Positions 9,801-64,000 of a stretch of 64,000 nucleotides of DNA are shown here, piece by piece. The DNA is from Phoronis australis (Eukaryota; Animalia; Phoronida), in the NCBI GenBank assembly GCA_002633005.1, contig NMRA01000349.1:248001-312000 (forward strand), given 5' to 3'. Every line of letters starts with the position of its first letter. The first letter of the stretch is position 1. The position numbers were made by a program, and so were the translations under genes. A model generated the notes under the pieces. The model had not been told where the DNA came from. It saw nothing but the letters and a program-made list of their open reading frames with translations, and did no database searches.

Positions 9801-12800
9801 ATAGGAACACTGGTATTACCCTCAACGCAACCTCATATCTGGACTTGAAGTAACAAAAAGGTAATCCATTCGATAGTATACAATGTTATATCCAACTGAC
9901 CTTCTCTCCATTTATGTGAAAGGTTCATAGAAGCTTTATGTTACTGCATGTTTGGTTGCATGTTGGCATGATTCCTCTTCCACTATTCTTATTGGAAAAA
10001 CTGGAAGTCAAGGTCGATTCTGATACTTAATTATTTTTACAGAAGTAACGACAAGAGAAAGCGCTATCCATCCAAAGTCAGCTTCAGTGAGGATGTGTAC
10101 ACGAGTCCTTCTGACAAGAAGCAAGTCATCTATTCCTCTCCCTGTAACAAAGCATCAAAAATAATTCAGAAATCTGCAGTTTCTCGATCGCCGAAAACGA
10201 GAGCTCGAAAACAAATACTCAAAAAGCAACCAAAGGCATCCATTCCTTTCCGAAGTACAAACCATTCCCTCGAGTCATCCAAATCATGCGACTCCACTGT
10301 GTACGACTTCGATAATGATTCAGATGATGAGGCAGATGCGTGCTTGATGAGGTTCTCATCCAATTTCACAGACAATTCAGACAAAGACAATCAAAACGAT
10401 GTTTATACGGAAGACCAGACTATGACTAGGAAGTCAGACCCTGAGGACTCTGGTGATGAGGGCACAGCCATCATGACATACACTTCTACTTACCAACAGG
10501 AGCGAGATTCCATGGGCAGTATGTCACAAGTAGAGGCAGAGCCCCTCGCTTCAGATGCCGCTGATCCTGGTGAGGGAAATGATGGTGTGCAGGATGCCGT
10601 TGGAAGGCAACGCAAGAGACGGAAGGGGATTTGCAGTAGACCAAAGGAGAACACATCAGTCAAGATGGTGCCAAACACTGGAGGTACTGGTGAGGAGGCG
10701 GAGGATGTGAAACAGACAATTTGTCATCAAAGAAAAATGAGGAAAGGTAGGTCTGGAGGATCATGTAAGAATATGTCTGCAGATGCTGTCTCTTCCATGG
10801 TGGAAACCGCTATGTCCAGTGTTAATGAAGTGTTCAATAGCTATGTTGAATGTTCCGACCATCAGAAAGAACAACTGGTGCTGAGTGTAGGTGGTGAAGC
10901 ATATAGTGACAGCTTTGGCTTTAGTGAACTGAGTGAAATTCCCAACACTAGTGCTTGTAGCGGTCAGATGGCACGTAGTTTCCCCAGGCTTACCTCTACT
11001 CCTAAGACAGAGATGACTTCGGCAGGGGGAGAAGGCAGAGTGACGAGGAGTAAGGCGAAGTTGGCTGTGCAGTCGCCTATGAAGTGTGGCACTGAAGGGA
11101 AGAGAAAAATTTGGGTTGAAAGTCCAGGAGAAACGTTTTCAGAGTCATCGTTTGTTGAGAAAACGCCAAAGACACCAGGAATACAATCTGGCAGTGAAGC
11201 GTACAAGAAGAGTAGGTCTTCAAAAGGTAGTCAACCACTGGATCCTATTACACATACTCCATCTCGTCGTTTGACTAGATCATCCTTGAGAAGTCATTTG
11301 GACAGTTCTGTGTGCGAGTCCAACCAGAAGACAGAGTCTGGAGCACTCGGGTCTAAGAACATTTCACTGGACAATGCCAACTACCGTTCATTTAGTGAAA
11401 CTGCTGGAAGTTCTTTGGCCTCACCAGGATGCGACAACTCGGAGATGTGTAGCAGTGCAGCTAGTAACCGTGGTGATGTCGATGAATGCGCAGACTCCTT
11501 ATCGCCATGTCTGAGCAGTGCATCTCTGCCACCAACCAGCCCGCCACTGTCATTGGTGGGCCATGGGAACCAACAGACCGTTAACAGGTCCATTGCAGCT
11601 ATGAGACGTATTGTGTCCATTGAGCAGAATGAAGTTACCCTGGCAGAAGTAAGTAACACCAACGTCAGGAGCGGCAGTGTTTGAAAATTCATGCAGTTTA
11701 TGTCAGTGATAAACATCTTACTAGCATTTGAAAGATGATAGAAAAGTAGAAATCTTGGAGTATATGTTTTTTGATGCCAAATGGTTCTGTATTGCTGATC
11801 GACACCTTCTAGAAATGAGTGTTCCATTTTGGACTCGAGTCATAAACTGAATCGTATCAATTTGTAAACAGCTCCTCTGTTAAAGCGACACTGTGCGCGC
11901 TTTCTGAAAATTTGCATTTGAAACAAGTAACTTAAGGTAAAACAACTTTGAGGTGGCTTGACACACAAAAATACTGATCTCCACCCAAATACTAAAATCA
12001 AAGCACAATACTTCATCTGATATGCACAAATCAAAACGAAGTAAGACTCACCTGTCCATTGAAATGCATACCTGTCTCCGCATAATATTAACACTAGTTG
12101 GGAGTCTAGAATGCGCACGGACGGCCTCGCTTTAAACTTGCTGAATCCTTGTTTCTTGCCATTTTGATTGCATTTGAATTGCTTGGAATTGAAAATAGAC
12201 AAGGTGTTTTAAGTTTTCACCAAGTTTTTGAATTATTTCCGCAAATACATCGAGATCATTTGCATTTGATCGCCAATGTTCTGCCTTCACTGGGGACACG
12301 GATTACACATGGGGGGGGCGCAGCACTGAAAAAAGTGGGGTCTACAGCCCCCCCTGAGGTGTACCGCTTATAGACCATGGGCGCCGGAGCACTGAAAACT
12401 ACTTAAGTGGGGGCTATAGTCCCCTATGGTGCGTTACCCATGTTACATGTTTCCCGATCATAGTTTGATAATGCAACAGCACATCGCTTTGGAGATTTTT
12501 GTACCTAGAGGAAAGATCACGATTCCATTTCATGTTTTTGTATAACATTAAAAAATTGTTTAACTGGGATTTTATCCGTCGTATACCCCAAACTCTTATT
12601 CGCTGAACTCGAGTTTAACTTCAATTATATCCCAGCAGATAATGATCAGCCTTTTGTAGATCTCAGATTTGTCGGATGGTGAGATGTCAGAGCCTGCAGA
12701 GGACACATGCCTCGCGTTTACCGCACAAGTCTCAGCGATACCAATGGGAACATGTCAGTCAGCCACGAAAGACTCGCAGTACTGGGATGATGATGAACTG

Positions 12801-49484: not shown

Positions 49485-50390
49485 TTACCATGTGTGGCCA
49501 AAGCGACTCTCTGCATTCACGCCCACATTCGGTGCAAGCTTAACCATCATTCCATAACTCTGCATCTTCATCATCATTGTCATTGCCACAATTAAGTTGA
49601 TATGTTTGCTTGCCATATGTGCGCATATGGCGGGTTAGTGCAGTTCTATTACTACACACACGCCCACACAGGTGACACACTGTGTCATTATTATTCTTAT
49701 CGGACATGTGGTCGTCATATTCATGTGTACGGTATGTGCGCAGCTGTACACAATCGGAAACCGCCTTGTGCATCATTGCAAAAGTTTGTGTCTTACCGCC
49801 ATTGCTCCCACCATCATTGGTTTGGTACAGATGGTGAGGCCAAGCCAGCTTCACTACTGTACATACCCCCATACCTGGCACTTTCTGCATCATCCCAGGA
49901 CTGTTCACCACTGAGCTTCTTATAGTCATCACTATATTGGTGCAAACGGTAGCTATGTGTAATGGTATGTGAGGTTAAACTATCTCCGCTGCTATACACA
50001 GATTCATACCTGGCGCTTTTTGCGTCATACGAGGACTGTTCTCCATTGAGTTTCTTATAATCATTACAAATGGTAGTCCTGTTGGCGTGCATGTGAGGTT
50101 AAACTTTCTCCGCTGCTGTACACAAGCTCATACATGGCACTTTCTGCATCATCCCAGAACTCTTTTTCATGGAGTTCTTTATAACCCCACTGAATTGGTA
50201 CAAATTATAGTAGTCCTGTTGGCGTGCATGTGAGGTTAAACTATCTCCGCTGCTGTACACAGGCTAAAACCAGGCACTTTCTGCGTCATCCAAGACTGTT
50301 CTCCATTGAGTTTCTTATAATCATCATTGGATTAATACACAAGTGGTAGTCGTGTGTGCGTGCATGTGTCATTAAACCTTATTCACTGCT
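49485..50390 (-). pseudogene. Degenerate ~120-bp-period C2H2 zinc-finger-derived repeat array, cassette 1
   Basis: One intact finger (CHLCGRVCSNRTALTRHMRTY, last His replaced) plus Cys-less units (SWDDAESARYxxxYSSxxxLxSH). Contains frameshifts and stops. Confidence 0.6.
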
Positions 50391-50391
50391 C

Positions 50392-51357
50392 TTATTCAAT
50401 GGCTGCTTGATTGTTGACCCCTCGTGGTTCACCTTCTTCTGGAAATTGGGTGTCGTCCTGTGATCCATGCTTGTCAAGGAGAGGCATTAATTTGCCTATT
50501 TGTGTCGTCAATTGGTCTATTTGACTGCACAGTTTGTCTGTTTTTGTGCCCAGTGGGTCTTTACTTGTTTGTGTGCTCAGCTTGTCTATTTGTGTGCTCA
50601 CTTGGTTTACAAGACTGCTCAGCTGGTCTATTGGTCTGCTCGAAATATCGAGGACAGCTAATAGTGGTTTGTGGTCCAAAATGTTCTCATCTCCTTCCCC
50701 AAATTGGATGTTGCAGATGTGATATTGTGGCCCATTATATAATAAATAATCGATCTTCTTTTCTCCGGCTTCATACAAATGGAATTGTGGGTATTTTGCT
50801 AGGACACTTTGTGCTTTGTCGCTTTCATAGTTGAAGTCGCCTCCAACAAGTACTTTAAATCCATTCTGTTTGCTCATATAGTCCAGCAGGAACAGAAGCT
50901 CATTTAATATGGATTCCTTGACATCTTTTGCTTTGTAACGGCCATGGTAAGTGGCCACAAGAATATAGGTATCCGACATGCCCTTTATCCAAAACTTTCT
51001 GATGAATAGCCTTGTTGCAAATTCACTGTCCTCTGATATATGTTTAAGTATGCAAAGCCTCTCATGCATGTTAATGAAGTCGTGTTCTTCAATCAGCACA
51101 TTATTTAAGTTGTACACAAAACTTGTGTATCCTCCAGCACGGTCTTTTCTCCCCTCCCATACTTCGTAACAAGCAGGTTTTAGGGAATCTGCATGTGTGT
51201 TAAGGTAGCTTAGTAACATTTTTGCACTGCTTAACTCTTGCAGAAACACCAGGTCTGGCTGTTTGTCCTTCAGCAACCCGTGTATGTATTCATATACTTT
51301 GTCTGTGGTTACACCTTTTTTACGGCCTGCATTCAAGCTTATGAAATCAATTGCCAT
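50392..51357 (-). CDS. Stand-alone EEP (DNase I/APE-like) nuclease/phosphatase with C-terminal heptad repeat, 321 aa, intact
   Basis: Motifs in the expected order: ISLNA, PDLVFLQE, ATYHG, VLVGGDFN, KIDYLL, LDHKPL. Tail IDQLSSL/VNQVSTQ/IDKLSTQ. No reverse transcriptase follows. Confidence 0.85.
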   Translation of the reverse strand: MAIDFISLNAGRKKGVTTDKVYEYIHGLLKDKQPDLVFLQELSSAKMLLSYLNTHADSLKPACYEVWEGRKDRAGGYTSFVYNLNNVLIEEHDFINMHERLCILKHISEDSEFATRLFIRKFWIKGMSDTYILVATYHGRYKAKDVKESILNELLFLLDYMSKQNGFKVLVGGDFNYESDKAQSVLAKYPQFHLYEAGEKKIDYLLYNGPQYHICNIQFGEGDENILDHKPLLAVLDISSRPIDQLSSLVNQVSTQIDKLSTQTSKDPLGTKTDKLCSQIDQLTTQIGKLMPLLDKHGSQDDTQFPEEGEPRGVNNQAAIE

Positions 51358-53463
51358 GATTGTTTGATGTCTGCTTTTACGTCAGATAGGGTGGTTGATG
51401 GATAGTTTTTTTACTGTTTGCTGTCTGAAATGTGTCACGAAAGAATATGTTATGCAAGAGTATAGAAGAAAATTTGAAAGCTAGAAAATGGATGTGGTTT
51501 GAATCATTTGTATTTTTTGGAGTTCTGTAGTTTTTTCTTGTTACAGCATAACAGTGTTTAAAACTACAGGACGACAAAAACGTATTAAACAGTCTTTAAC
51601 TTAACTGTAAAACGCCTTTCATTTTTGGCTTTTCATACTGAACGTAAACTACTCAAAAAAGTAAATGGATGTTGTTGTTCACTACTAATTACCTGGAAAT
51701 TGAGAAGTTCAACATGGATGTAGTCCATACAATATAGGTGTTTGCCAGGAAATTTTCCAGACATTTTGAAATGTGTCTGAGGAATTTTTGTCTGATGTTG
51801 AAAGAACAAGTTTTTATGAAAATTCACTAGTCAGAAAACGAAAGTCACAAAATTTAAGAGATTTAACCAGTGCAGGTTCCTGGTTTCTTGGAACTATTGG
51901 TGGTCTATTAGTTGCTTGTGCCTAAACTATACTCACTTGTTGTTTCCTAAGGTTCACACAATGCCAGTCACCCTCACATATGCAGTTCTAGTCACGATTC
52001 TAAACTTTGTCAGCTGAAAATGTAAGGTAGTGTTAACACAGTTGTGCCCTTCCTCAGCACTAGGAACCAATTTAACACGTCACAGATAGTTCATGTGCCA
52101 GAAAAAAGGAAAAAATAAATTAATTTATCATCAAAACTTTAGAAACATTTAGAAAATATATTTCGTGGAACATAAAAAAGTTTCAAGCCAGCAATTTCTG
52201 ATGTTAAAAATGGAAGTATTTCCATATAGCCGAGCCTTTTGTCTTGCTCCGCCATTTTGGATTCAAGGAAGAGCAACTACAAGATTTCTTGTCCTAATTT
52301 CATCAGCATGAACACAATACCAAACAAACAGTGATAATATCTAATTAAAATGTGTTTTCAACAACATGGCATGCACGAACGCTTAAAATTTAATCTTGTA
52401 CACCAAAGCTACTTGTTTTCTCTCACCTCGTCTCTCACCTTTCGTCTCAAAACACCAAGCGTACAAGTCCCGGATGTAACGCTAAGACGTGTGGGATTGC
52501 TCACCAGCCAAATGGCAGCAATGACCGAAACCAATTATGGGATTAGTGAATAGAACAAGTGTTTGAAAATTGCAGGTTTCTATATTCCTTCTCGTATTGG
52601 TTCCTAGCTCAGCATTACATTTCCTGGACTGTTAAAACCAAGAAATTTCCAATATGTCATATGATCTGATCTAAAATAACATTCCATAAACTTGACAAAC
52701 AAGCCTATTGTGTTGGTGCACAATGCTCTGTTAGTATTGAAGTATGTCAGACTTTATGTATCTAGTCTCCTGGAGCTCCAATAAACTTTATTGTCAAGCA
52801 AGCTTTTTGTGTTGGTACACAATACTGTGGTTAAGCATGCTATGCTAGTCAAAAGAGCTTACAGTCACACAAAGGAATTAGTAGATGAAAGTTAAGTCTA
52901 ATTTCTCTGAAAATCAACTGTTTTTCTCCAGTCCACATTTTTTGGTGACAGTATTTTATACAAAGCACATCTGCTTCATGGCATTTGTTGAAAGCCGTTT
53001 ACAGATGGTATTTTTAAATATGGGTTAGCATCAGGTCACTGTTTAAAACATCCTTGCTGGATTACATGAGCATCAGATGAAAGCAGACAATAAGAAAGCT
53101 GGACTTTGTAAACATTGGTTTGCCACTGTCAAACTGATAACAACAGGGCTGTATCCTGACTGACCAAGCAGTCAATCAGGAATCAGCAGTTTAAAGTTAA
53201 GTCTAATTTCTCCCAAAGTCAACAACTTTTTTAGTAATAGCATTTCATAAAGAACGTGGTTGTTTGCATTTCTCATAGTGCTAACAGATGAGGGAAATCT
53301 GACCTAGGGTAAACATGCCCTAAAAGCCAGAAAGTTGAGCATCTTTTATCCATCTTTGCCTAAGGGCTGGTACTCCATTTGTGAATCAGCCACCTTGAAA
53401 TTCACCCCATGGCTGATGTGGGGCTATTTCCATTGGGGTGTCAGGTGACTATAGTCAGGATCC

Positions 53464-53670: not shown

Positions 53671-54854
53671 TTCCAGTCAGCAATTCGTACCCTGAACTGT
53701 AATTTCTAGAACGGCGGACCTTTGATATTTTGCAAATATCGACACTATAGTTTTTGTTAAGGCCCTTGATGCAGCTTAAATAGGGGAGAGGTAAAGCTAT
53801 ATACACGATGACACTCAGCTCTATGTTCCTGAAATGAGACGGAATTCATAATACCAGAAATGTGGTTACTCACAAAGAACAGCACTTAAATTCGGATGTT
53901 ACGTGGTCCAGAAAGAGTACATTCTCGCATTACCCCAGCCAATGAACTTTCAAATCGGTCGCACTTAAATGAGTGATAACACCTCATTTCATATTCGGAC
54001 GAAACTATGTGGTCGGAGAATGACTCGAAATTTTTATCTGGTTATATTTTGCATGTTACTTAAGTTGCTTAATGGCTGAAAACGGCAACAGCCCAGTATT
54101 CCAATGGTTCACTACTCTGAAGGTTCACTACTCCAATCAAAGGTTCATTGCACGAAAAATATCTATAATTTCGGATTCAGCTGTAGTTTTTTAACATTTA
54201 CGGTATTAGATGTACTGAGTGGTGTACCAGCATAACCGAAACAAATTTCGTATTTCATGTGCATGAGAAATTGCCTACATCTGTGTCTTACGAATTTGGA
54301 AAATGAGTACAGTGTACTTGCATTTTTAAAGGAATATGAAGTAGGAATATTGAATTATCAACCATGGCATTCATCAAATTCATATCAAGATTGCATCATT
54401 TCACAGCGCAACTGAAAAGTTAATTAGGGCCGCTGCACCTCAATCTCACCCGAGCCCGCCGGAATCACGCTCGTGGCCGAGCTGTAGGGTGCCCTGTCCT
54501 GGTCAGTTTTCATGAAGTCAAACAGTTCCATTCAGTATTCTCGAATTTAAAATAAAACGGAAGAATGGAAACGCACACACATGTACAAGTATGGATGTCA
54601 ATACACCAATCCACTATTAAAGTCGACACTGGATGAACAACTTATTTGACAATCACTAATTTGATGAAGCGCTTGAAAATTATTACTAACTTGGTTATAA
54701 TTATAGTTTGTACCAGTATCAGCAACAATTTTTTGTTGTTGCCCACTTATGTCCTATCATTAACGGATAGGCTGAGGCTGGACCTTTTCTGCAGGGGGGG
54801 TTTTCGAACCGCTGAACCCCCTGGCTACAGGCCAGTGTCCCAAATGCAGAATTT

Positions 54855-55980
54855 TTACCGGTTACCATGTGTGCCCATGTGCCGAGTCAGAGCACCTCTG
54901 TTACTGCACACATGCCCACACTGGGTACAAGTTGTGTCATTCCATAAGTCTGCATCTTCATCATCATTGTCATCACCACCATTAGGGCAATATATTTGCT
55001 TGTCATGTGTGCGCATGTGCCAGGCTAGTGCAGCTCTGTTGCTGCAAACACGTCCACACTGAGTGCACACTGTGTCATTCCACGAGTCTGCATCTGTGGT
55101 ATCTCCATTGATAGGTTAGTGTGTTTGATTACCATGTGAGCGCAGGTGTGAAATGAGACCTGCTCGGTTGCTACAAACACACCCACAAATTGTGCATGCT
55201 GTGTCATCCCAGGAGTGTTCTTCATCAGACATGGGGTCGTCATATTCAATCCACGATTCTGCTTTATTTACCAACTCGTTACCATGGTCACTGTGTTGGC
55301 GTATTTGATTGACGTGTGTAGGCATGTCTAGAGCACCTCTGTTGGTGCACACGTGACTATAAGAGGTGCGAAATGGGACTTCCCAAGATAGTATTTCATT
55401 GGGTACATGCTTATTTTCTTCAGTCGTTTGGTCGCCATATTCATGTGTATGTGTGCCGCTGTACACACCCAGAAATGTTATGCGTTCTGCATCAGTCCAA
55501 GAGTTTGTTTCATGAAGTGTCTTACCGCCATTGCTCCCACCATCATTGGATTGGTACATATGGTAATTATGTGCATGCCTATGTGAGGCCACGCCAGCGT
55601 CACTGCTGTACATAGTCCCACATCTGGCACTTTCTGTATCATCCCAGGACTGTTTTCCATTGATTGTCTTATAATCATCACTGGGTTGGAACAAACGGTA
55701 GTCGCGTGTGCGTTTATGTGAGGCCAAGCCATCACCTCTGCTTTACATAGGCTTATACCTGGCACTTTCTGCATTATCCTAAGGATTGTTCTCTACTGAG
55801 CTTCTTATAGTCGTCACTAGATTGGTACAAATGGTAGTTACGTGTGAATGTATGTGAGGTTAAACTATCTCAGCTGCTGTACACAGGCTCATACCTGGCA
55901 CTTTCTACATCATACCAAGACTGTTCACCATTGAGTTACTTTTAATCATTTAACTGGATTGGTACAAATGGTAGTATGTC
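54855..55980 (-). pseudogene. C2H2 zinc-finger repeat array, cassette 2, frameshifted
   Basis: Three intact fingers (CTICGCVCSNRAGLISHLRSH, CTQCGRVCSNRAALAWHMRTH, CTQCGHVCSNRGALTRHMGTH), each preceded by W-x-D, plus degenerate units upstream. Confidence 0.7.
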
Positions 55981-56108
55981 GTCTGTGCGGGTGTAATTCA
56001 ATGACTGCTTGATTTTTGTCCCAGCATGTATGGTTCACCATTTTCTGAAAATTGGGTTTGCTTGTGTGATCCAGGCTTGGATTAATGTTAGGAAATGTTA
56101 AAAATCAT

Positions 56109-57448
56109 TTATTGCAAATGGAGAGCCATTGGTGTGTCTGTTATTCTTTTGCCTATTTGTAGGTCTGTTAGTCTAGTTTTCAGGTCTATTCGATTGGTAT
56201 TCAGGTCTATTAGTCTGGTTTTCAGGTTTTTTTGTCTGGTTTCCAGCTCTATTAGTCTGGTTTCCAGGTCTATTAGTCTGGTTTCCAGGTATTTTAGTCT
56301 GGTTTCCAAGTCTATTGGTCTGGGCATATTCAGGACAGCAAATAGCGGTTGGTGGCCCAAACATTCAGGTTGTGGTTTTAATTTGACCTTGGGAATGTCA
56401 GTTATTAATCCATTATATAAAAAATAGTCGATCTTTTTTTCTTCATTGTCTGGGTACAAATGGAATTGGGTGTGTTCTTCTAAGACTTTCTTTGCGTTGG
56501 AGATCTTAAAGTTGAAGTCGCCTCCAACAAGTATTTTCAATCCCTCCTGTTTGCTTAACTCATCCAGCAAAAGCAGAAGCTCTTTGAATATGGTTTCCTT
56601 TTCTTCCTTCTTTACTTTTAAATGACGGCCGTGGTAAGTGGCCACAAGAAGTTTTAGATTCGGCTCGGGCTTTGATTGTAACTTTGTGATGAACAGCCTG
56701 TTTAAAAATTCACTGTTATTAGATACCAGGGACGTCTCGAGAAGTTCCTCATGTTTGGGCGTTAAGTCATATTCTTCAGTCTGCAGTTCATTTACATCGT
56801 ACACGAAACATGTTGATGAGTAAGGTCTGTCTTCTTTTCCCTCCAATACCTCGTAACACCTGGGTTTAAAGGAGTCTGCATTTTTGTTCAGGTGTTTTTT
56901 TTTAAATCTATCTGCATTGCTTAACTCTTGCAGAAACATCAGGGCCCGGTCTCCAATCTTTTTACTCGAAATGGAACTCGAAATTAGGTTTGGCATTTTC
57001 TACTCTACTTTTGGGCGAACTCAAGATAAGTGTCTATTATTCTATGCTCGAGTATACAATAACTTACGTAGATAATTTATTGCCCTTAGTTCACAGTTTG
57101 TAAACCCAATATTAAAGCAATAAGTTCGAGTTTGAACTCGAAATTTCGAGTTTTTACTCGAGATTGTAGCACGAATATAAGGGTCTTCAAGGGCAAACTT
57201 GAACTAGAAACTCCTATGCATTAACTATAATGTATTCGAGCACAGTCTGATAACCAATTATCTTAAGTTCGCACAAAAGGAGCAGAGAAATTGCCAAAAA
57301 TAGTTTCGAGTTCGTTTCGAGTACAAAGATTAGAGACCGGGCCCAGATGTGGCTTTTTTGCCTCCAGCAAGTCGCGTATGTATGTATATGCTTCCGTGGT
57401 GTTCCCTGATTTAGGGCCTGCATTCAAGTTTATTAATTTAATCTTCAT
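56109..57448 (-). pseudogene. Second EEP-heptad paralog (~311 aa restored), interrupted by a MITE
   Basis: MKIKLINLNAG...KKPHL (57448-57344) joins in frame to MFLQEL (from 56939) once the insertion and one TSD are removed. Retains ATYHG, GGDFN and KIDY, but DH is changed to GH. 21-nt repeats encode (IDLETRL)-like heptads. Confidence 0.8.
56943..57343. mobile_element. 401-bp PIF/Harbinger-like MITE
   Basis: ~40-bp TIRs GGCCCGGTCTC.AATCTTT.TACTCGAAA..., internal ACTCGAAA repeats, 3-bp TSD CAG at 56940-56942 and 57344-57346. Confidence 0.85.
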
Positions 57449-58943
57449 GATTGTGTGATGTATGTTTGTCTGCTTTTATATCAGATGGGTGGTTGATGCA
57501 TATTGTCTTTGCTGTATGCTATCTGAAATGTGTCAAAAAGGAATAATTAGTTATAGAAGAGAACAATACATGGAAATATGAAAAATGAATGTAGTTTGAA
57601 ATCATTTTTTATGTAGTGATATTTCCTTGTTACAGTGTAACAGTGTTTAAAACTACAAGACGCGATTATCATATTTAACAGAGTGTCTTTACTGTAAAAC
57701 AAAATTTATAGGTGTTCGTACTGAAGTAAACTAACCAAAAAATTAAATGTACACCATGTTGTTGTTGTTCACTACTAATTACCAGGAAATAGAGAACATG
57801 GATGTAGTCCATGTAGGTGTTTGCCAGGAAATTCCCGACATTTTGAAATGTCTCGGGAATTTTTGTCTGATGTTGGGAGAACAAGTTTTTATGAGTATTT
57901 GCGAGTCAGAAACCAAAAGTCACAAATTGGCAGATTTCACCAGTGTGGGTTCCTGGTTTCTTGGAATTATTGATGTACCATAATTTGGTTGTGCCTAAGC
58001 TATACTTACTTGTTGTTTTCTGAGCTTCACACAATGCCAGTCACCCTGGTATCTGCTGTTCTTTTTAAGATTCTAAACTGTGTCAACTTAAAGGTAGTGT
58101 TATCACAGTTGAGTCCTTTCTCAGCATTAAATTCCCCTGGACTGTTAAAACCAATACCAGGATCCAATATAGATTCATGTTCCATTATACTTGACAAATA
58201 AACCTATTGTGTTGGTATACAATGCTGTGGTAGTATTTGTACATTGTGTACCACTATCCTAGAGTGTAAAAATCAATTTCCACTATCACGATCTAGTCTA
58301 GAATCATTCTCCCATAGTCAACCACTTTTCTCCATTTGAAGTTTTTTTAGTAATAGCATTTCATGAAGAACACGTCTTCTTCACATTTGTGGAATGATGT
58401 TTAGAAATAGTGTTTTTACTTGGCGGAATTTTAATTCCGCCAAGTATGTTGGTCTGACAGCAAGTTTTTCTTTTTTTGTTTGTTCGCTCTCTACAGGTCG
58501 TCGTGTAGATCGGGAAGTACTGGAACGCTATTGTTTTTGGTCATGATCGGATTCAAAATGGCAGACGTGGCAGCCATTTTGTTTCCAATTTCACAGTCAA
58601 ATGCTCGTAGAGGCCGCATTTTTCGACGTACAGGGCTGAAACGTGGTACAATTATTATAGAACACGTGCTACAACTGTGCCGAAAATCGTTGACTTCCAG
58701 TCAAAGATGGCAGAAATATTGACGATGGCGCATGTGCACCTTGATATCTGGCCAAAAACGTTTTCCCCTGTAGAGGGCGCATTAGCGAACCAATCACTTT
58801 CAAACTGGTCACGTGTTTCTTGGAATTGATCAGCTTTTACAAAATATTGTTTAACCGGAAGTCACTTTCAAGATGGCGGCTCTGGCGCATTTTCACCCAT
58901 TTTCAATCGTTCTGCTGTCGCCTTTTTAACGGGAAGAGCAAAT

Positions 58944-59206: not shown

Positions 59207-59929
59207 CAAATGACGTGAATTTTTGCATGTAGATTCCTTGAAGTATGCTCTTTCAAAATTTCTGGGATAACGGTTTCCTCAGACTTACCGTTTTCGAGTT
59301 ATTTGACTTTGAATTTCAAAAAAATACAAAATTTCAATTTTTTCGATAAATTTATGGAATGTTAAAACTATCAATTTAGATAGAATTTCGAACGGGCTTA
59401 CAGAAGATATTGTCCATTTTTCGCTAGATAATACAACACAAGAGAGCAAAGCAGTCATGGTACCTGAACATGGCCAAATTTCTTTTAATGATAGTGTTCA
59501 AGATGAAATATCAAAAATGTTGCCACAGTTTTGTATGTTTTTTCATGAAAATCTTTATAGTTCTATTTTGTTGTGACCCTGCATTGTAAAAATGGAAAGT
59601 TTAAAAAAAACAAGTCCTAACTGTACTGTGGTTTGGATCATAAACCATCACATGTGAAAGCTTATATGAATTTAAATAGCCATTTCTGAGATGTGATGTT
59701 CTGAAGTTGGCCAAATTTGGACATTTATCTACAGGTCCCTCTCAACCTCAGTATCATGTGATTCACAGAACTATTTGCTATCAGTGCCATTTTGAGAAAA
59801 CTTAGCCAAAATAAATCACTCTAGTTCATGTCTTGGTGATCTTAAGATCAAACACAAATTCAAGCATGGTATAAATTACCATGTAGATGTCTGAGGAACT
59901 ATTGATGCACTATAACCGGCTTGTGTCTA

Positions 59930-60252
59930 AATTGTACTTACTTATTGCTTCCTGGCCTTCATTGCCAGTCACCCTGACAGTCCTATTTAAGATTCTAAAC
60001 TGAGCCAGCTGATTAATAAGGTAGTGTTACATAATTGTGTACTTCCTGGTTGTTTGCATTTCTCAGTACTAACAGGTTGTGAGGCAAATCTTACCTCAGG
60101 TAAACATACCCTAAAGGCCAGGAAACTAACCTGTTTGGCAACTTTTATTCACCCTTACAGGAGTGCTGATACTCCATTTCTGAATCAGCCAAATTGAAAT
60201 TCACCCCATGGCTGATGTGGGGCTATTTCCATAGGGGTGTCAGATGACTAGT
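59930..60252 (-). repeat. Third partial copy of the EEP cassette upstream region
   Basis: TGCCAGTCACCCT..GATTCTAAACT..AAGGTAGTGTTA matches 51960 and 58035. TTGAAATTCACCCCATGGCTGATGTGGGGCTATTTCCAT matches 53395. Confidence 0.7.
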
Positions 60253-62416
60253 CTGAGGCTGATATAATGAGAGTGCTTGATAGATTTCAAAACATACCAA
60301 CTTCAACCTCTGCATGAGTTCAGTTTGTTAAAACTGCAAAAAATTTAAGTAAAAGCAATTAATGTATTAGTTATTAGAACCAACAACTGATATTCATGTT
60401 CGTTTGAACATCTCAGTTACTGTAAACTGCAAACATTAAATGATTTGATGAAAAAAACTTTAATTTTCATCTAAGCATCATTACAACAGAAGTTAGGTCT
60501 AGTGGACTTTAGTATTGACTTAGTCAGAATAATTAAATAAATATCCATGCTGAGCAATTTGGCAACAAAGTTGTAACTTTTGTCGAAGCTGAAAACTTTC
60601 ACAGTGACATTAACACATAAGTAATTGCCCAGTTGTATACCTTTCAGATGAAACTGAACACGACTTTGTCAAGTTGGTGACGAATCATTTAACTGAAGTT
60701 CACCTTGGGACTGCTCCTGACAAACTGAACCAGGTAGGATTGGCTGGCACAAGTTCGTCTAAAAGTTAAAGTCTCCAGGTGGCTCTACTTTGGTCGTGTT
60801 CTCATAGTGCAGCAAATCAAGTTCTAGGCGCAAAATCTGTCGTTAGTTGGGTTACGTAATCATGTTTTTTGTTGTACGTTTGTTAGAAAAATGAGAAGGT
60901 ACATTCATTTGATACAACACTGGGTATCAATTACTGTAACAGTTCTTTGATCAAATCATACAAAGCAGTAACAGTATGTTATGCCTAAAGTTTGTTTTTG
61001 ACCTGTGTACCAGCTTTTCAGCCTCAGAAAACCTAAACGTACTGTGTAAATGCTAAGGCTCGTCTCCTTTCGCGTGAACTTTAAACCTGTACTTACATCA
61101 CTTATTTCAGAGGTTACACAAACACTTAGACATCCTCAGACTAATGTCACGTGACTGCAAGATTAATTTGTTAATTAACTGTATGCTGAACAAAGTTAAG
61201 ATCACTGCGCTCCGCCCAGATTTCGTTAACAAGCTGCTTCACGTGATTTCTGTTTCTCTGTTATTTTAAATGAGGATAATCTTACTGTAATATGCCGTTT
61301 TTTGTCACTAATATAAACATGATTATAGATAATGAATGAAGGTTCACTGTATTGTGAATTGAGTATGAACTGTAAGTACAGCTGCAGTTAAGTTCTTCTG
61401 GACAACACCCTGGGTATTGAGGCTGACATTAAACTCCACTCATTTCTGGTGAAAATCAGAATAACGAGTGTCCCTTGCGACTCCTGGGTACTAACGTACG
61501 CATGGGCGTATGTTTTGCGTACTGCTCAAAAAGCTGAGATAGATGAAATATCGAAGACATCACATCAAGGGACCATTACAGAAATCTCCGTCTTAAACCC
61601 AGCCACTGGTTCATCTTTCAGGCTCACCTGCAAACACGAGAATGGTTGTCCAAGTGTTTCCTAGAGCAAGCAGCGGGGGACAGTGTAGACCCTCAGGTCA
61701 GTGTAGTAATCTGCTGTTGTATTAATTGTCTGGTCACAATGAGGAAATATGTCGCCAATTGTGCTTGAGTCGAAATTCACTAACAGTCCTAAAAAGCAAT
61801 ATCGATGACTTGTCGTTAAAAGTGATTTTATGCTCTTTAAAATTCTGATGGTTTACGAAAATGTTTAACTGAGGTCTTGATCATCATTTATTTTAAGCTT
61901 TGGTTTGAGTTAAAGTCTCCTCAGGATCTATAAGCAATGCGGACACAAACCAGTGGCCAGAGTCACAAATACATCAATGAGATGTAGGTGATTACCAATC
62001 ACAACATTCACTATGTTCATAGATTATAGACAACAGATTTGCAACTCCGGCATATTCTTACGAGCCGAGTTGACCTCTCCTAACCTATCTGCTGCAGTTT
62101 CCGGTCAGTTTTAATTTGACGAGAAATACCTGCATCTACTTTACTGTCCAAAACAGCGAAAAAAACATTACTTTATATTAATTTCGGTATTGAAACGCTC
62201 TTCAAAATCTTTCAATAGTAGAAGTGTTGGTATTGTGAGTACTTTTGGCAATGCTACTGGTAATTAATTTCAAAATTCAAACTTCGGTTCCGACCTTTTA
62301 TGTCGTCTGCTTGCCCAATAGCAGCATAGTTATCGGACAGTTTTTGATTTACGGTTCACATAGGCCTACTGAGAAAACTACGAAAGCGTGTTTATAAATC
62401 AACATTCTCAAGTGAG

Positions 62417-62497
62417 CAGTTCTTCTGGGCAGTGTTGAGTGGCCCTTAAAAGGGCCGTTGGTTGTAGGTATAGCGTGAAATGGTTCTTAAAAGAACC
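62417..62497 (-). terminator. Two histone-type 3' stem-loops (62482-62497, 62441-62456) and an HDE-like element (62417-62427)
   Basis: On the - strand: CAAC-GGTTCT-TTTA-AGAACC-ATTTC, then CCAAC-GGCCCT-TTTA-AGGGCC-ACTCA, then CAGAAGAACTG 13 nt after the second stem. Confidence 0.8.
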
Positions 62498-62507
62498 GTT
62501 GAATAAT

Positions 62508-62825
62508 TCAACATAAATCACACAGTATGCCATGCTCACTCAAGTACTGAAGGTCCTCTTCATTAAAGTTTTCATCTGGAAAGGTTGGATGAAAACAGAG
62601 GAGATGACAATATCGATGACAGTTGTAACACCTTAGATAGATATCACCGTTCACCAACGTTGTCACGAACCCTGCATCGTTCAGTTCTTGTTCCTGTATC
62701 CACAAATAATCCTGAACTGTAGGAAAAAAATGACAAACAACACAACGAATCAAATTTCGAAAATCATCGCCTTCGTACGATTCCGTGTTGCTGTCACCAG
62801 ACTGATGTTCTTCCCCAACGTCCAT
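62508..62825 (-). CDS. Small acidic PHD-type (C4HC3) zinc-finger protein, 105 aa
   Basis: MDVGEE... CVVC-x34-CYNC-x4-H-x2-C-x24-CDLC*. The ORF ends exactly at the last zinc ligand. Confidence 0.65.
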   Translation of the reverse strand: MDVGEEHQSGDSNTESYEGDDFRNLIRCVVCHFFPTVQDYLWIQEQELNDAGFVTTLVNGDIYLRCYNCHRYCHLLCFHPTFPDENFNEEDLQYLSEHGILCDLC

Positions 62826-63089
62826 CGTAAAAAATCGACGTTGCAAGTGATGGAAACTTGTCTACGCTCTCGTCCTTTGTTTCTAACCTTTAACCCATTT
62901 TTTAATAAAGGGGTGTACTGTTTTTGGCTCATGTTGATAGTGCATAATCTATGATTTTACAATGTATTAATAGTGTTAAATGCATATATATGAACTGGTC
63001 TCATTGAGGTGCACAGCAAATAAATTAACTATAACAAATTAAAGTTTTGAAAATATAAAGAGCAGTAACAGACTCCCTAAAAATTAGGC

Positions 63090-63152
63090 TTGTTTTCGAA
63101 AGGTTTGCGCCATTGGTGATCCGATTGGTTCAATCGCTTGCGGCGGGAAAAT
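63090..63152 (-). promoter_or_regulatory. Cell-cycle-type motif cluster upstream of the PHD ORF
   Basis: On the - strand: E2F-like TTTTCCCGCC (63142-63151), CCAAT at 63124-63128 and 63112-63116, CHR-like TTCGAA (~63095-63100). Confidence 0.45.
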
Positions 63153-63905: not shown

Positions 63906-64000
63906 TTGTCTACGTTGCTAGTTTTTATAAAGGTGGGCCTGTCTGTAGCCAACTACGGTAAATTCATAAAAGGTCACGTGCAGTGCAACTCAAGTTCATT

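Follow-up and report, generated by a model that had tools for sequence, protein, structure and literature searches.

The closest described counterparts of the locus reported here are the metazoan replication-dependent histone genes, whose mRNAs are, according to the sections of PMC5054213 and PMC7026596 covered here, the only known messages with a 3′ end of this kind. In the same sections it has been described that U7 bears a conserved UCUUU box (PMC5054213), that in mouse the core AAAGAG forms base pairs with CUCUUU and that cleavage takes place 4–5 nt past the stem (PMC7026596). In a literature search with coverage of few subscription journals, we found no description of a non-histone animal or animal-virus gene with such a 3′ end, and the available parts of PMC11071296, PMC4841609 and a soniCLIP preprint contain nothing on non-histone animal clients of the histone pathway. 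Six matches to the Histone3 model, of 25–29 bits, have been recorded in polinton-like viruses from Paulinella, a protist (PMC12220804); they are not discussed in section 16, the part of that paper covered here. A class of non-histone genes with histone-type ends thus appears to be undescribed in print for animals. A second system with points of likeness is that of the accessory genes of Polintons and adintoviruses, including the Oncoid CXXC genes (PMC8502044); the words 'stem' and 'hairpin' are absent from the main text of that paper.

In this study, we analysed a 64-kb stretch of animal DNA (the window, by which we mean the whole of this stretch) with a G+C content of about 39%, which contains a CFAP97/hemingway exon and, near its end, a small ORF named P0001. 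As in metazoan replication-dependent histone genes, a six-pair stem starting with GG, a UUUA loop and A/C-rich flanks follow soon after the stop codon of this ORF, a purine-rich run lies about 14 nt past the distal stem, the ORF is short with no evident intron, and CCAAT and TATA-like sites are located upstream. P0001 differs from these genes in that its product is not a histone, that its hairpins stand in tandem (an arrangement seen in 0 of 21 histone genes), that the core downstream is GAAGA, that five ATGs precede its own, and that no histone cluster is present in the window. The features of the locus, all on the minus strand, are the following:

63112..63128, minus strand: two CCAAT boxes (63128 and 63116), 12 nt apart, a possible promoter some 290 nt before the ATG
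62985..63059, minus strand: two TATA-like sites (63059 and 62990) upstream of the P0001 ORF
62508..62825, minus strand: ORF P0001, 105 aa, ending in CxxC-stop (ORF translation)
62511..62744, minus strand: C4HC3 zinc-finger motif with PHD spacing, residues 28–105 (loosened PHD pattern)
62482..62497, minus strand: proximal histone-type hairpin, 10 nt past the TGA; Rfam Histone3 22.8 bits, below the cut-off
62441..62456, minus strand: distal histone-type hairpin, 51 nt past the stop; Rfam Histone3 34.8 bits, above the cut-off
62417..62427, minus strand: candidate histone downstream element, purine-rich, starting 14 nt past the distal stem
61887..62115, minus strand: candidate poly(A) hexamers downstream of the hairpins, ATTAAA at 62115 and AATAAA at 61892

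The tandem hairpins and the downstream element

The original prediction placed a hairpin (GGTTCT-TTTA-AGAACC) 10 nt past the TGA of the 105-aa ORF and a second one 25 nt further on, and both positions were confirmed. When the two were scored with the Rfam Histone3 model (RF00032, gathering cut-off 34 bits), as had been suggested, the distal hairpin passed with an E value of 2.4e-6 and is the sole Rfam gathering match in the window, whereas the proximal hairpin fell short of the cut-off. With a strict hairpin pattern the 64 kb yield 2 sites, both of them behind P0001, where an order-3 Markov model predicts about 0.0018, and with this excess and the location directly behind the stop codon we rejected a chance origin of the hairpins. 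Both stems are perfect and dominate the predicted ensemble, with pair probabilities of 0.85–1.0, and the distal stem and loop are those of an H3 gene on a public contig (L041). The two 30-nt hairpin copies are 73% alike and have identical loops; their stems differ at 4 of 12 positions, all of which fall within two compensatory pairs, and this fits selection acting on the structure. Compensatory stem changes can also arise through template switching in inverted repeats.

A purine-rich downstream element had been claimed as well, and here the placement 14 nt past the stem agrees with the claim while the composition speaks for it only weakly. Seven of 8 nucleotides are purines around the core GAAGA, and the position is that seen in the histone genes of the public contigs; at least 7 purines in 8 are found at that distance in 18 of the 21 histone genes and at 17% of background positions. 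An AAAGA core is present in 12 of these 21 genes, and an H2B gene (L025) has GAAGA, as here. The proximal hairpin is followed by 5 purines in 8 at best, that is, by no purine-rich element. With the distance given in the part of PMC7026596 covered, the cut is predicted 4–5 nt past the distal stem, near 62436.

P0001 encodes no histone and is therefore, by Pfam and by comparison with 16 histone genes, not a replication-dependent histone gene itself. None of the 107 frames between 60.5 and 64 kb that run for 22 or more codons without a stop matched a histone Pfam family at E≤0.05, and the 16 histone genes, taken from public contigs, gave a best tblastn E value of 0.5 and a best blastn E value of 0.055 against the whole window, which bears out the earlier statement that no histone-coding sequence lies nearby. 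A decayed histone gene overlapping the region was likewise considered and rejected, as neither Pfam nor tblastn or blastn gave a trace of one. Judged from its sequence, the 3′ end of this non-histone ORF is genuinely of the histone type.

On the upstream side, pairs of CCAAT boxes no more than 40 nt apart occur three times on the minus strand and four times on the plus strand of the window, which makes the pair before P0001 weak promoter evidence. Since the CCAAT boxes are separated from the ATG of the ORF by five other ATGs (63004, 62985, 62945, 62932 and 62898), the promoter of the ORF is uncertain despite the CCAAT and TATA-like sites. Immediately upstream of the candidate promoter, the segment 63322–63903 has a perfect 16-bp inverted repeat at its borders and a 67-nt duplication inside, and is possibly a miniature transposon; a 60-codon ORF in another frame (62750–62932, minus strand) extends into the beginning of the zinc-finger ORF. 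Elsewhere in the window, 49500–52100 and 54800–58200 are two copies of a cassette duplicated in tandem on the minus strand. Both contain an exonuclease-endonuclease-phosphatase ORF, intronless and with a coiled-coil tail, followed by a repeat region with C2H2-like fingers, and the second is broken by a 415-nt inverted-repeat insert (56936–57350).

The P0001 protein and its relatives

P0001 is an acidic protein (20 D/E against 4 K/R) with the ligands C28, C31, C66, C69, H74, C77, C102 and C105. The same C-x2-C ... C-x2-C-x4-H-x2-C ... C-x2-C spacing is found in the PHD finger PF00628, to whose models and clusters P0001 shows weak matches; in contrast to that family, the motif stands alone in a protein of 105 aa and has a first loop of 34 residues, which is longer than usual. 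A loosened PHD pattern, the first loop of which was widened after the protein had been inspected, matches once in the window, in P0001, and never in 555 simulated windows, which argues that the ORF is, or formerly was, a real gene.

It had been proposed that the motif is a C4HC3 PHD finger. While the Cys/His spacing agrees with this, the PHD label does not hold at the Pfam cut-off, as the match to PF00628 reaches 10.1 bits against a cut-off of 24 (E 0.88). Atlas PHD clusters were assigned at 0.85–0.88, a recognition below the Atlas mark that we treat as a lead only. The AlphaFold2 models of P0001 are poor (pLDDT 44 and 47), and a fold search with such a model, which is meaningless as input, gave no match with Z of at least 5. 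In a PDB sequence search the best matches were to unrelated chains (E 0.064), and 1wev, which we take to be a PHD finger, was found at E 0.28–0.31. P0001 is likely to be a PHD-type zinc finger, and from the cysteine spacing and the sub-threshold PHD matches only it may be put forward as a candidate chromatin reader.

A word-indexed search among 5.8 billion proteins returned two relatives only, each from a single ENA record. P0002 is 96% identical, begins at the same Met and keeps the first CxxC; it lacks the last CxxC and has Pro in place of His74. P0003 is 68% identical over the C-terminal 69 residues; it lacks the first CxxC and has Tyr in place of Cys66. Both sequences look broken or mis-called. 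No relative was found among longer proteins, which, with a word-indexed search, is weak evidence, and none in the viral_contigs collection, where the queries A1 and A3 also gave nothing. A phage collection and PHROGs gave no match, three loci in metagenome_contigs were all chance matches to bacterial or unrelated cysteine-rich ORFs, and query A1 gave two weak matches in the five source records searched, both inside long bacterial-looking frames.

Histone-type ends on other non-histone genes

A hairpin pattern scan of genome_contigs gave 57 stretches, many of which are evidently animal DNA binned with bacteria. These correspond to 39 distinct contexts, namely 21 histone genes, 8 non-histone ORFs and 10 others that are bacterial-looking or without a clear ORF. 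The 8 non-histone ORFs end 19–40 nt before the hairpin, with no histone near any of them, and half of their hairpins (L034, L037, L058 and L068) pass the Rfam cut-off. They encode the following products:

L022, L023, L037: small Cys/His proteins before the hairpin
L034, L054: MADF proteins before the hairpin
L068: RING protein before the hairpin
L057: RING-like protein before the hairpin
L058: ORF with a product of no recognized family before the hairpin

In record G007, the downstream element of the non-histone L058 is nearly the same as that of the histone genes of that record. Five source records were widened, giving 11 stretches, of which one (L079) is bacterial. Tandem hairpins are absent from all 12 other non-histone sites tested, as they are from the histone genes. 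Three hairpin scans of viral_contigs returned 0, 8 and 1 stretches; the eight were rejected, with a single perfect stem among them that lies inside a coding frame, as was the lone stretch of the third scan, in which the stem is imperfect and no ORF precedes the hairpin.

Some further cases were noted in passing. The contig stretch L074:166-9163 (G003:C209) is gene-dense (93% ORF cover) and virus-like, with a protein kinase, and its RING gene ends in a 41-bit histone hairpin and an AAAGA element. Record G006 has three MADF-like ORFs (L034:132-860, L054:1107-2648 and L087), each ending in a histone-type hairpin, and two of the three have Pfam MADF matches. A 100-aa ORF of no known family (L076:930-1272; 33.6 bits) and an SGNH/GDSL-hydrolase-like ORF (L077:859-1527; 27.5 bits) are followed by hairpins that fall short of the Rfam cut-off.

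L022 and L023 come from contigs that are Polinton/Maverick elements, recognized by pPolB (PF03175) and a Pox_A32 ATPase, and the first of them (L069) also carries an rve-chromo integrase. Each has two adjacent accessory ORFs, both with a hairpin end:

L069:13105-14193 (G001:C70) and L070:9488-10583 (G001:C47): accessory ORFs, a Cys/His finger of 69 aa and a protein of 182–183 aa without a family

The hairpins of these ORFs are followed by near-identical sequence, the Polinton hairpins stay under the Rfam cut-off, with 32.7 and 28.9 bits in L069, and the elements downstream of them are purine-poorer. Further members of the small finger family are located next to a TnpB-like ORF (L075, 34.4 bits) and at a site with no recognized element gene nearby (L078, 39.0 bits), and therefore solo copies exist. 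On a Maverick-like contig (L065/L072; G002:C3) with an rve integrase, a weak protease match and a 1354-aa ORF without a PolB match, four histone-like hairpins stand in a row at 11057–11146, followed by an AAAAGAG run; no ORF of at least 40 codons ends within 150 nt before these hairpins, and the 1354-aa ORF lies 800 nt upstream.

P0001 resembles the accessory genes of Polintons and adintoviruses, including the Oncoid CXXC genes as described in the accessible part of PMC8502044, in that it is small, acidic and has a paired CXXC and CK2-type sites (at 12, 36 and 81). The small Cys/His ORFs of Polintons share the RNA end, and the Maverick-like contig shares its tandem arrangement. P0001 differs from these genes in that its window contains no pPolB, rve integrase, packaging ATPase, capsid gene or other Polinton or viral core gene, and that no homology to the Polinton finger family could be demonstrated (hhalign probability 1.3–1.4%), on which ground membership in that family was rejected. 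Oncoid membership was rejected as well, as P0001 has neither the LxCxE nor the CR1 of the Oncoid definition given in that part of PMC8502044. Comparing the 209 ORFs of the comparison loci with the window gave a best tblastn E value of 0.008, at an unrelated nuclease ORF, and no convincing terminal repeats bracket the hairpin-gene cassette in the window. As the window edge lies 1.2 kb upstream of the ORF, an element could still lie beyond position 64000. The earlier suggestion that a host, transposon or endogenous-virus gene had co-opted this type of processing is thus strengthened on its transposon/virus side by accessory ORFs that end alike in Polinton contigs of other animals, and the window adds no element gene to it.

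Processing and origin of the P0001 message

According to the model that we prefer, P0001 is an accessory gene left stranded by a Polinton-like or large-DNA-virus-like element, and its message would be bound by SLBP and cleaved by the U7 snRNP near 62436, just past the distal hairpin. The distal hairpin together with the purine-rich element would form the processing site, and the proximal hairpin, with no purine-rich run behind it, would be retained and offer SLBP a second site, so that the resulting message would keep both hairpins and have no poly(A). It would also follow S phase, the period in which a DNA element depends on the replication machinery of its host. We place this model as a whole just short of an even chance. 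We infer the mobile-element origin of P0001 by analogy, because homology, core genes, element ends and a relative in the viral contigs were all sought and not found; the gene has probably been left behind in the host genome as a stranded copy.

A rather unlikely alternative is that P0001 belongs to a lineage-specific, non-viral host gene or family, which has captured a histone 3′ cassette and is co-regulated with the histones. The window, with neither element genes nor element ends, is what this would lead one to expect, and several of the 8 non-histone cases are on short contigs without a recognized element gene. Three candidate exons on the plus strand (59428–59532, 60648–60733 and 61622–61696) have compatible phases, and the P0001 gene may therefore be nested antisense within an intron of a host gene; however, none of these exons matches a Pfam family. 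A host gene also fits poorly with the small number of relatives, both defective-looking, and with the single hairpins of the histone genes, from which a captured cassette would have come. Near the candidate exons, we also noted a CpG-poor stretch (59600–60400) and a CpG-rich, promoter-like one (58400–58900).

It is also conceivable, though improbable in our judgement, that SLBP binds the message but U7 makes no cut, and that the message is polyadenylated downstream with the hairpins acting as stability, translation or decoy elements. The two poly(A) hexamers, the GAAGA in place of the AAAGA core common among histone genes, the share of background positions that are equally purine-rich and the fact that a single cut needs no second hairpin are all in line with this. 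Against it, the purine run lies at the histone-typical distance and behind the distal hairpin only, the H2B gene L025 likewise has GAAGA, and this core may be tolerated through a G–U pair with the UCUUU box of U7 (box as described in the covered part of PMC5054213).

Much less probable still is the idea that the finger is encoded by the terminal exon of a gene with introns and that the 105-aa ORF is not the actual product. A pyrimidine-rich, acceptor-like site at 62716/62711 coincides with the point where the similarity to P0003 starts, and the upstream ATGs make an unspliced leader awkward; however, the entire C4HC3 motif, which never occurred in the simulations, is contained in the unspliced frame and owes its first CxxC to it, P0002 has the same start Met and first CxxC, and histone-type genes are intronless according to the available part of PMC5636114. 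An accident in which a lost histone orphon has left its 3′ end beside an unrelated or dead ORF, to which the defective relatives might point, is similarly far-fetched in view of the missing histone coding trace, the two perfect stems, a first hairpin starting 10 nt past the stop and the recurrence of the layout in 8 of 39 public contexts.

Returning to the model of a stranded element gene cleaved by U7, a wider version of it can be formulated, which we offer as possible, though on balance unlikely. In this version, invertebrate Polintons and related DNA viruses would have a class of small regulatory genes, encoding PHD, RING, MADF and other zinc fingers, processed by way of SLBP and U7, giving messages without poly(A) that are timed to S phase, and the cassettes would escape as solo genes into host genomes; the P0001 locus would then be a live PHD-type chromatin reader that is made in step with new histones, with the second hairpin binding extra SLBP. 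If true, a non-histone client would break the histone-only rule for this 3′ end, and DNA elements would have a means of timing gene expression to S phase. RNA-seq of poly(A)-selected libraries, and the annotation derived from it, would in that case overlook a whole class of genes.
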